Shown here piece after piece: positions 4,256-5,224 of a stretch of DNA of 48,976 nt; within the stretch, counting starts at the first letter, position 1; the number at the start of each line of letters is the position of its first letter. The stretch is from Dehalococcoidia bacterium. Its GTDB lineage: Bacteria > Chloroflexota > Dehalococcoidia > SM23-28-2 > HRBIN24. The stretch spans positions 1 to 48,976 of the forward strand of contig DAOTWZ010000079.1 in assembly GCA_034435615.1 (NCBI GenBank), given 5' to 3'. The notes below the pieces were generated by a model. That model was not told the DNA's origin and did not search any database. It saw nothing but the letters and a program-made list of their open reading frames with translations. Both the position numbers and the translations under genes were made by a program.

Positions 4256-5224
4256 TCACCTCCGCCTCTGTTCCAGGGTGAGGAGAGAGGGGCTGCCCAC
4301 GGCCCCCCGTTGGGCCAGGTCCTGATAGACGAGGCGGGCCAGCTCCTCCAGGTCGGCGGCGAAGATGAGGCGGGCGTGGCTGGCCCGCTGCAGGGCGACG
4401 AACTCGCCCGCCGCCTCGTAGACCGGGAGCTCTCGTCGCTGGCCGTCCTCCTCATAGGCCAGGACATAGGGGGTGGGCTTCAGGAGGGGCTGCAGCCGCT
4501 CCCAGACCTCCGGCTGCATCTGGTCCACCTTGAGGGCGCCCGGCGCGGGGATGGCACGGGCCTCCATCAGGGACTGCGCCACCTCCCGGCGGAGCCCGAA
4601 GAGCTCCTCCACGCCCAGGAAGCGGGAGGGCTGGCCGATGACATCGTAGATGAGGCGGAGGGAGTCGCCTTCCCCGTGACGGAAGAGGGGTAGCCAGACC
4701 CTGCCGTCCCGCAGGGCGAGGGCGGCGGGATAGACCTGCAGGTCCTTCCACAGGAGGAGGCTCACGGTCACCTCCTCCCTGGCGCCTATCTTCCTGGCCG
4801 CCATCAGATAGTCGCCGAGCTGCTGCCACAGCTCGCCGATGTCGCGTCCGGTGAAGGTGGCGGCCTCCAGCTTGAGGAGGAGGCGGCCGCGCACCAGGTA
4901 GGCCGGGAAGTCCCCCTGGGGAGTGGTGACGTAGTAGTAGGGCAGCGTCCCGTGCTCCACGAGGGAGGCCACCGTCTCCGGCACGGCGCGCTCCAGAGCG
5001 GCCAGATTCCCCTTCTCCACGCGGAGGGCGGCCACCGGCGTCCAGTAGACCTCCTTCAGGATGGGGTGGCGGCCGGGGTTGGGCCGCCAGTAGACGGGGA
5101 GGCGGGCTATGCGCCCCTCCCCTGGCAGGACGTGGCCCAGGCCCACCTCGAAGAAGTAGCGGGGGCTAGCGGTGTCCCCCTCGTGCCAGTCCAGATTCTT
5201 GAAGCAGCGCACCTCAAATGGCAT
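4256..5224 (-). CDS. Hypothetical protein, about 322 aa, no family recognised. Its start overlaps the glnK stop.
   Basis: The ATG at 5224 ([17 protein letters not shown]...) overlaps the PII gene stop by 11 nt (ATGCCATTTGA). The stop lies 6 nt before the flotillin start. I see no TM segment and no known motif. The long ORF-track start at 5329 lacks an RBS. Confidence 0.55.

Follow-up and report, generated by a model that had tools for sequence, protein, structure and literature searches.

What is the role of a conserved protein encoded between the PII gene glnK and the glutamine synthetase gene glnA, when it resembles no described family? The amtB-glnK couple is among the most conserved gene pairs of prokaryotes and the textbook example of a PII protein acting on its partner by direct docking. 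The question is raised by a 48,976-nt stretch of DNA from a Dehalococcoidia bacterium of the Chloroflexota (assembly GCA_034435615.1, contig DAOTWZ010000079.1, positions 1 to 48,976 of the forward strand; hereafter called the window). An open reading frame (ORF) of this stretch, which we call X, belongs to a packed array of five genes, amtB-glnK-X-flotillin-glnA, whose gaps do not exceed 9 nt (Table 1). A first-pass annotation, made from the sequence alone, had described X as an unrecognised, soluble-looking protein translationally coupled to glnK and had proposed it as a new PII-associated factor. Our results suggest that X is not a pure PII partner but, more probably, a hitherto undescribed accessory component in the uptake and assimilation of ammonium.

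X is a real and conserved gene. We identified 34 full-length homolog clusters (283–338 aa; 37–98% identity), none of which is annotated. The GC-content at third codon positions (GC3) of X is 0.90, like that of the genes beside it, and the pairwise ratios of nonsynonymous to synonymous substitution rates (dN/dS; 0.15–0.30) indicate purifying selection. Among the genes of the operon, X is always the one that has diverged most: relative to the related locus L001, the window presents 63% identity for X, 86% for AmtB, 89% for GlnK, 79% for the flotillin and 86% for glutamine synthetase (GS). The coordinates of the first-pass annotation were correct, and the strand, which it did not state, is minus. 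A longer in-frame ORF of 357 aa, starting from the ATG at 5329, was rejected as all homologs (34/34) start with M-P-F. The protein is soluble-looking, as had been claimed, with a maximal Kyte-Doolittle mean over 19 residues (KD19) of 1.09 and a pI given in Table 1.

The claims that X is unrecognised and carries no assignable motif were also upheld. No match to the window X was found in Pfam-A, NCBIfam, PADLOC or PHROGs at E ≤ 1 or E ≤ 10, and scanning all 35 members of the family against curated families returned merely three singleton matches (E ≥ 0.12). Searches of PDB sequences, conducted with the single X sequence and with a profile, yielded nothing meaningful. The profile-HMM search that had been proposed as a check on X returned no confident match to a well-characterised unrelated family. 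An exhaustive profile search across 1.84 billion protein representatives assigned only 112 proteins to the family at E ≤ 1e-3, and with the stricter limit of E ≤ 1e-30 there were 31. One match, P0138 (NB-ARC/TPR), was discarded as a spurious low-complexity hit. The family is rare yet phylogenetically widespread. Full-text literature searches retrieved no paper on the X gene or on an Amt/PII/flotillin operon; a mention of flotillin in PMC10970341 is unrelated to the X operon. The X family is thus previously undescribed.

We further analyzed the fold of X. The AlphaFold2 (AF2) model, built from a 35-sequence alignment, presents a mean predicted local distance difference test score (pLDDT) of 92.4 and a predicted TM-score (pTM) of 0.88. 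Its fold is without match among PDB structures: none passed E ≤ 1e-3 in Foldseek, where the query TM-score did not exceed 0.19. The recurring sub-domain matches were SH2-like alpha/beta modules (56–79 residues) and papain-like peptidases. A papain-like peptidase was ruled out, the family having no conserved Cys. The comparison of the N-terminal and C-terminal halves of X with hhalign aligned 115 columns (probability 88%; E = 3.2e-6), which indicates that X is an internal duplication, or pseudo-dimer, of two homologous units (Table 1). Several standalone proteins of 93–148 aa (P0131, P0134, P0136, P0139, P0140, P0141 and P0143) match only the C-terminal repeat (profile positions ~206–320). Proteins of this kind (107–150 aa in one search) presented no domain in a Pfam scan, and they may represent the ancestral single module or else fragments. 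Other relatives combine X with further domains: in P0049 (465 aa), which probably runs off its contig, X is followed by a dCache_1/PDC sensor fragment, and in P0080/P0161 (416 aa) by an HHH_5 helix-hairpin-helix domain. Pfam scans of these distant relatives named the partner domains alone (Amt, the dCache fragment and HHH_5).

The conservation of X is concentrated in a short core near its N-terminus (Table 1) with the motif WRPNxxxHPxLKEVYW...VEKGNL...TxPYYY, whose invariants include N49, H53, K57, E58, E70, K71, N73, P82, T93, P95, Y96 and Y97. A second conserved loop, YDVIGxPSRFL, spans residues 193–203, and W159 is also among the invariants of a polar block that is specific to the clade coupled to glnK. 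When distant relatives were added, the conserved positions were structural only (P179, L295, Y60, L74, L77, P95, F181 and a small number of others). Distant relatives have other residues in place of H53, E70 and K71; the polar invariants are clade-specific and are gone in the relatives anchored to the membrane or fused to Amt. The superfamily alignment contains no polar residue conserved over the whole X superfamily, so a catalytic site shared by all members is unlikely.

To define the genomic context of X, we collected 44 loci from contigs fetched via X homologs and annotated them by tblastn with five window proteins. A scan of genome contigs with short peptide patterns, which is not a census, yielded only three loci, from Bacterium HR24 and from a single Dehalococcoidia metagenome-assembled genome (MAG). 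The clade of soluble X proteins comprises Chloroflexota (including Bacterium HR24 and Dehalococcoidia MAGs), Desulfobaccales, Omnitrophica and unassigned metagenome contigs. Its gene order is amtB-glnK-X-(flotillin)-glnA, and identity to X goes down to 37%. The same operon was found at 98–100% identity on a 266-kb metagenome contig (L019).

Within this clade, the junction of glnK and X is strongly conserved. In 32 loci, 330 nt or more of sequence is available upstream of X, and 28 of these have a full glnK directly before it. In the window, the ATG of X (5224–5222) overlaps the end of glnK, whose TGA lies at 5216–5214, and the same 11-nt overlap (ATGCCnTTTrA) is kept in 24 of the 28 loci with intact glnK, across X identities of 42–98%. 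This conservation indicates that the geometry is not due to chance, and the overlap reported by the first-pass annotation is confirmed. A purine run (GGnGAnAGGGG) is conserved in the aligned junction sequences, and the GlnK C-terminus TGERGxDA[IL] is invariant in the X-coupled GlnKs. The overlap of start and stop, the Shine-Dalgarno (SD) sequence within the upstream gene and the conserved geometry together predict translational coupling of X to glnK.

The downstream partners of X were also analyzed. A glnA gene is found downstream, directly or past a flotillin gene, in every non-fusion locus with enough sequence. The flotillin gene follows X, with a gap of 2–70 nt, in 19 soluble-clade loci and likewise in the two loci of the clade with a transmembrane (TM) anchor. 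It is absent from seven soluble-clade loci where glnA abuts X (L011, L012, L023, L024, L025, L026 and L028), and also from the fusion loci and L044, where X is conserved. X is kept next to Amt paralogs that are only ~35% identical to the window AmtB (L004 and L009). In the Omnitrophica genome GCA_023818945 (L004:11912-16978), the operon runs past glnA with a GATase gene, a gene for an HTH_8 protein and the glutamate synthase gene gltB; X is thus part of a complete GS-GOGAT assimilation cluster there. A Desulfobaccales MAG carries an NrpR homolog directly upstream of amtB-glnK-X-flotillin-glnA (L005:783-1775 and L006:161-1153). This protein consists of PF01995 (NRD1_2) and a winged helix; NrpR is the nitrogen repressor of Euryarchaeota, and its homolog occurs here in a bacterium.

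The GlnK proteins coupled to X retain the Arg-Gly tip of the T-loop and the B-loop. Tyr51 is the usual site of uridylylation or adenylylation of PII. This residue is Phe in L007 and L023 and is absent in L025 and L026 (VAQG), and the invariants of X are kept in these loci. Covalent modification of the T-loop is probably not universal in this clade.

We then considered the loci in which X occurs without an intact glnK. In the Armatimonadota relatives P0061 and P0153, the gene order is amtB-X-flotillin-glnA, with no glnK. In the locus L042, no match to a PII gene was found anywhere in 17 kb, and amtB and X are separated by 10 nt. Eight representatives (P0061, P0153 and six others) present an N-terminal hydrophobic helix (KD19 of 1.9–2.7) and, next to it, a stretch rich in Arg and His. 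When P0061 was modeled with AF2, the prediction displayed a helix (2–34), a disordered linker (pLDDT < 50) and a core (pLDDT ~90) with the strand and helix order of X. Based on the positive-inside rule, the X domain of these anchored relatives is predicted to be cytoplasmic.

In another lineage, Amt carries X as a C-terminal fusion: P0079 (748 aa) comprises Amt (14–416), a Pro/Ala linker and X, and P0163 (753 aa) is another such fusion. The Amt-bearing fragments P0071, P0147 and P0148 also carry PF00909 joined to X. The C-terminus of AmtB is cytoplasmic (PMC10433425). Neither glnK nor glnA was found near the fusion genes in the fusion loci. Transposases flank the fusions at L015:2-1441 and L016:3519-5782, the latter being apparently split by a frameshift. 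In the window, X is a separate ORF and not an Amt fusion.

A third situation is found in a lineage from peat metagenomes, where the glnK upstream of X has decayed step by step. The gene is full-length in L005; it encodes a 74-aa mini-PII lacking roughly residues 45–85 in L032 (2793-3017), is frameshifted in L033 (6786-7011), is reduced to a 23-aa tail in L036 (2954-3025) and is scrambled in L034 (42-302) and L037 (3187-3354). Despite this decay, X, flotillin and glnA are intact throughout the lineage. The final glnK codons (...TGERGxDAL*), which hold the SD sequence of X and the 11-nt overlap, are always kept, and the remnant of glnK seems to be preserved as the translation-initiation region of X. 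L033 possesses another glnK-amtB pair, and the more distant member P0154 presents the order PII-glnA-amt-amt-X. PII paralogs encoded in trans may stand in where X lacks a glnK in cis.

These distributions qualify the proposal that X is a PII-associated factor. The linkage to glnK holds in the soluble clade (28/32 loci, with an identical overlap in 24/28), but PII appears not to be a constant partner of X: the co-occurrence analysis suggested by the first-pass annotation revealed no intact cis glnK in the peat lineage or in the clades with a TM anchor or an Amt fusion. Overall, X is soluble where glnK is present, and loci without a glnK in cis have an X that is attached covalently, either to the membrane or to Amt. 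The simplest account of this pattern is that X acts at the cytoplasmic face of Amt.

The control region of the operon is consistent with nitrogen regulation. The window GlnK possesses the P-II domain, a canonical T-loop Arg-Gly tip, the B-loop TGxxGDGKIF and an adjacent amtB, as expected for a PII protein. The flotillin matches NCBIfam FloT at E = 3e-113, below the cutoff, and the GTG start of glnA overlaps the flotillin stop by 4 nt. We detected no convincing internal terminator in the operon (3 terminator-like sites versus 1.4 expected, which is chance level) and nothing in a sigma-70 promoter scan upstream of amtB. The Rfam scan of the window found 3 tRNAs only, with no riboswitch or leader in the operon. 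Upstream of amtB, we identified four phased boxes (Table 1) in a pattern that occurs once in the window, whereas 100 shuffles gave an expectation of 0. The pattern recurs upstream of amtB in L001-3, L013, L019, L021 and L022; in L017/18, it precedes amt. We take these GTAAC boxes to resemble actinobacterial GlnR operators, and by this analogy they constitute a candidate GlnR-type (OmpR-family) operator. Directly after the operon, L009 (11857-12528) and L010 (7701-8372) encode a GlnR-like response regulator of the OmpR family (a weak GlnR_1st match and Trans_reg_C); upstream, these loci carry a second, divergent glnA and a glutamine-dependent NAD synthetase. The boxes and the neighboring GlnR-like regulator support a nitrogen-regulated co-expression of X, Amt, GlnK and GS.

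Table 1. Coordinates of X, its sub-regions and the associated operon features in the window
Feature	Position	Strand	Details and basis
ORF X	4256..5224	minus	322 aa + stop, 36.5 kDa, pI 6.35, soluble; undescribed family (translation)
N-terminal repeat unit of X, residues 32-148	4781..5131	minus	hhalign
C-terminal repeat unit of X, residues 170-311	4292..4717	minus	homologous to the N-terminal unit; hhalign
Most conserved core of X, residues 42-97	4934..5101	minus	alignment; 13/18 invariants of the glnK-coupled clade
Overlap of glnK stop and X start, 11 nt, ATGCCATTTGA	5214..5224	minus	sequence; predicted translational-coupling junction
Shine-Dalgarno-like purine run for X, GGGGAGAGGGGAG	5228..5240	minus	inside glnK codons T-G-E-R-G
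amtB, ammonium transporter, 436 aa	5562..6872	minus	Pfam PF00909, E=2.5e-123; stop 9 nt before glnK ATG
glnK (PII), 112 aa	5214..5552	minus	Pfam PF00543 (P-II), E=2.9e-31; aligned with E. coli GlnK/GlnB
Flotillin (SPFH/Band 7, FloT-like), 473 aa	2828..4249	minus	Band_7, E=9e-26, and Flot; ATG 6 nt past X stop
glnA, glutamine synthetase type I, 484 aa	1377..2831	minus	Gln-synt_C, E=1.4e-134, and Gln-synt_N
Four 5-nt boxes, 11-bp phasing, TTTAC-n6-GTAAC-n6-GTAAC-n6-GTAAC	6900..6937	minus	28-65 nt upstream of amtB ATG

Taken together, these observations lead us to favor, at slightly less than an even chance, a role of X as a non-catalytic accessory or adaptor of the Amt-GlnK-GS module, located at the cytoplasmic face beside Amt. 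The Armatimonadota loci, the Amt fusions and the decay of glnK in the peat lineage argue for a reading centered on the Amt face and GS over a purely PII-centered one, and GlnK may regulate or recruit X rather than PII binding defining it. The duplicated, two-lobed form of X, its lack of universal catalytic residues, its fast evolution and the SH2-like resemblance of its sub-domains point to a binding protein. Bridging or coupling to GS would be its most economical function, given the near-constant presence of glnA downstream and the precedent of metabolic coupling between AmtB and GS (Javelle 2005, as cited in PMC10433425). Sequence comparison shows the family and its conservation, the operon context, the junction geometry, the tethered and fused variants and the lack of a universal catalytic signature; docking of X on Amt or GlnK, bridging to GS and any regulatory consequence are inferred.

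Such an adaptor might work as follows. In the window, X would be made in a fixed ratio with GlnK through the 11-nt overlap, from a single packed and probably GlnR-controlled operon. It would dock on the cytoplasmic side of the Amt trimer, either directly or via Amt-bound GlnK and/or the flotillin scaffold, and these two partners could provide the route to the membrane for the soluble X of the window clade. The 1:1 fusion to trimeric Amt and the predicted translational coupling to trimeric GlnK suggest an equimolar complex with the trimers, with one X per Amt/GlnK subunit. The two homologous halves would serve as binding surfaces that link the channel with GS or modulate the channel, and ammonium entry would be coupled to its assimilation through X. 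GlnK docks on Amt at nitrogen sufficiency, and it could thereby make the recruitment of X dependent on nitrogen status. A more elaborate version, which we consider doubtful, is that X constitutes a third subunit of AmtB-GlnK and a new class of Amt-docking protein that bridges the channel and the GlnK switch to GS in flotillin microdomains, thus forming an ammonium-assimilation metabolon, and that it became anchored or fused to Amt in lineages without GlnK.

Several observations weigh against the adaptor interpretation. Amt adjacency is not absolute, as L032 and L033 of the peat lineage possess X-flotillin-glnA with no amtB directly upstream, and neither is the link to GS, as the fusion loci have no glnA nearby. 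The presence of X beside Amt paralogs of ~35% identity does not sit easily with an interface of high specificity, except if X binds the conserved cytoplasmic face. The polar invariants of the glnK-coupled clade (N49, H53, K57, E58, E70, K71, N73, T93, Y96 and Y97) could form a ligand-binding or catalytic site. Finally, all loci were found through X, which makes the context statistics one-directional.

Four other explanations were weighed against the adaptor interpretation. X could be a dedicated receptor or effector of GlnK that binds the T-loop in a 2-oxoglutarate/ATP-dependent manner and exerts its output elsewhere, as PipX and PirC do. This would account for the frequency of a full glnK directly upstream (28/32), for the identical overlap (24/28) and for the T-loop tip and B-loop kept by the coupled GlnKs; the polar block (N49, H53, E70, K71, PYYY, W159 and YDVIGxPSRFL) is confined to the glnK-coupled clade, as contacts with GlnK would be. 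We nevertheless consider it unlikely, since X is intact without cis glnK in Armatimonadota, Amt fusions and the peat lineage. The latter keeps only the last glnK codons with the SD sequence and start of X, which suggests that the overlap serves the translation of X and not PII. It is also quite unlikely that X regulates or assembles GS and that its linkage to Amt and GlnK reflects shared nitrogen regulation only. A pure GS regulator would have no need of the membrane location that the Amt::X fusions and the TM-anchored forms give to X, the fusion loci lack glnA, and X has no homology to known GS regulators. On the other hand, all non-fusion loci that are long enough to tell have glnA downstream of X, glnA abuts X in the seven loci without flotillin, and X-flotillin-glnA survives in the peat lineage after the loss of amtB and glnK. 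Small protein partners that directly regulate the oligomeric state of GS have a precedent (PMC10651883).

The remaining two explanations involve flotillin and enzymatic activity. With flotillin 2–70 nt behind it in 19 soluble-clade and both TM-clade loci, X holds what we take to be the usual position of NfeD, and it might be an NfeD analogue, i.e., a flotillin accessory or cargo adaptor that brings nitrogen-assimilation proteins into flotillin microdomains. However, X is conserved in the seven soluble-clade loci, the fusion loci and L044, which have no flotillin, and the window X has neither NfeD domain nor TM segment, so that this explanation appears very unlikely. About as unlikely is an enzyme whose N/H/K/E/E/K/N/T/Y/Y cluster would be the active site, either one of a new kind that takes the place of GlnD in modifying or demodifying PII, or one of the amidase/glutaminase type. 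No catalytic residues are conserved across the superfamily, and Pfam detected no nucleotidyltransferase domain of the GlnD/GlnE type in the window X or in family members. The Tyr51 of the coupled GlnKs is not conserved (Phe in L007/L023, absent in L025/L026) while the invariants of X stay, which also argues against a PII-modifying enzyme.

The adaptor interpretation can be compared to known systems. As in the canonical AmtB-GlnK pair, X is encoded inside the same operon, with a predicted coupling to glnK, and its relatives are tethered at the cytoplasmic face of Amt, where GlnK docks. Only two components make up the canonical system, whereas here X, often with a flotillin, is inserted between glnK and glnA, and X presents no similarity to PII or Amt. 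Like the cyanobacterial proteins PipX, PirC/CfrA and PirA, X would be a non-enzymatic, PII-linked protein acting by protein-protein binding, but it shares no sequence or fold similarity with them, is 3–4 times larger, is internally duplicated and belongs to other phyla. X also persists where glnK is absent or decayed, and its binding to PII is putative. In bacteria, NfeD is typically encoded just upstream of flotillins (e.g., Bacillus yuaF-floT and yqeZ-floA), and the X gene is likewise immediately upstream of a FloT-like flotillin in the same operon. Unlike NfeD, X has no NfeD domain (Pfam PF01957) and no membrane segments, and it also occurs without flotillin. The cyanobacterial proteins IF7/IF17 are protein regulators of GS. 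GlnK1/sP26 of M. mazei are described as such in PMC10651883. These regulators are encoded with or next to glnA and are nitrogen-regulated, as X would be, and by analogy X could plausibly bind GS; however, they have no homology to X, and its membrane-tethered variants are without counterpart among them. Finally, Amt-like sensors with C-terminal cytoplasmic fusions have been described: Ks-Amt5 is fused to a histidine kinase (PMC5764959) and Sd-Amt1 to HAMP-GGDEF (PMC11152129). The relatives P0079, P0163, P0147 and P0148 similarly carry X on the cytoplasmic C-terminus of Amt via a flexible linker, but no output domain such as a kinase or cyclase is recognisable in X, which is a separate polypeptide in the window.

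The rest of the window is ordinary chromosomal sequence, with genes for common functions (DnaE, UvrC, Ffh, DnaJ, aspartokinase, homoserine kinase and three tRNAs) with a GC-content of 70.6%. Two long ORFs, at 34147-36093 (plus strand) and 15237-16316 (minus strand), present an atypical composition: 0.91–0.94 at first codon positions (GC1) and a GC3 of 0.75–0.77, relative to a GC3 of ~0.9 elsewhere. The 648-aa one had no match in Pfam, and the two are probably wrong-frame ORFs over real genes on the other frame or strand. At 20439-24236 (minus strand), a TgpA-like transglutaminase membrane protein (Transglut_core and DUF4129) follows a DUF58 protein. The association of DUF58 with a TgpA-like transglutaminase is the usual MoxR-associated cluster and is unrelated to X.

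X would add a new conserved protein to the amtB-glnK setting, placed before a flotillin scaffold and GS and with natural fusions to Amt. Its fold, unmatched among solved structures, also makes it a target for structural biology. The main limit on its impact is its rarity: the family comprises ~112 cluster representatives in 1.84 billion proteins, which so far come from metagenomes and MAGs only. If the adaptor interpretation is true, an additional, undescribed component would organize channel, sensor and GS in several phyla that have been little studied (Chloroflexota, Desulfobacterota, Omnitrophota and Armatimonadota). Bacterial flotillins would then gain a concrete metabolic client, and the physical or metabolic coupling of ammonium uptake to GS, which has long been discussed, would become directly testable.

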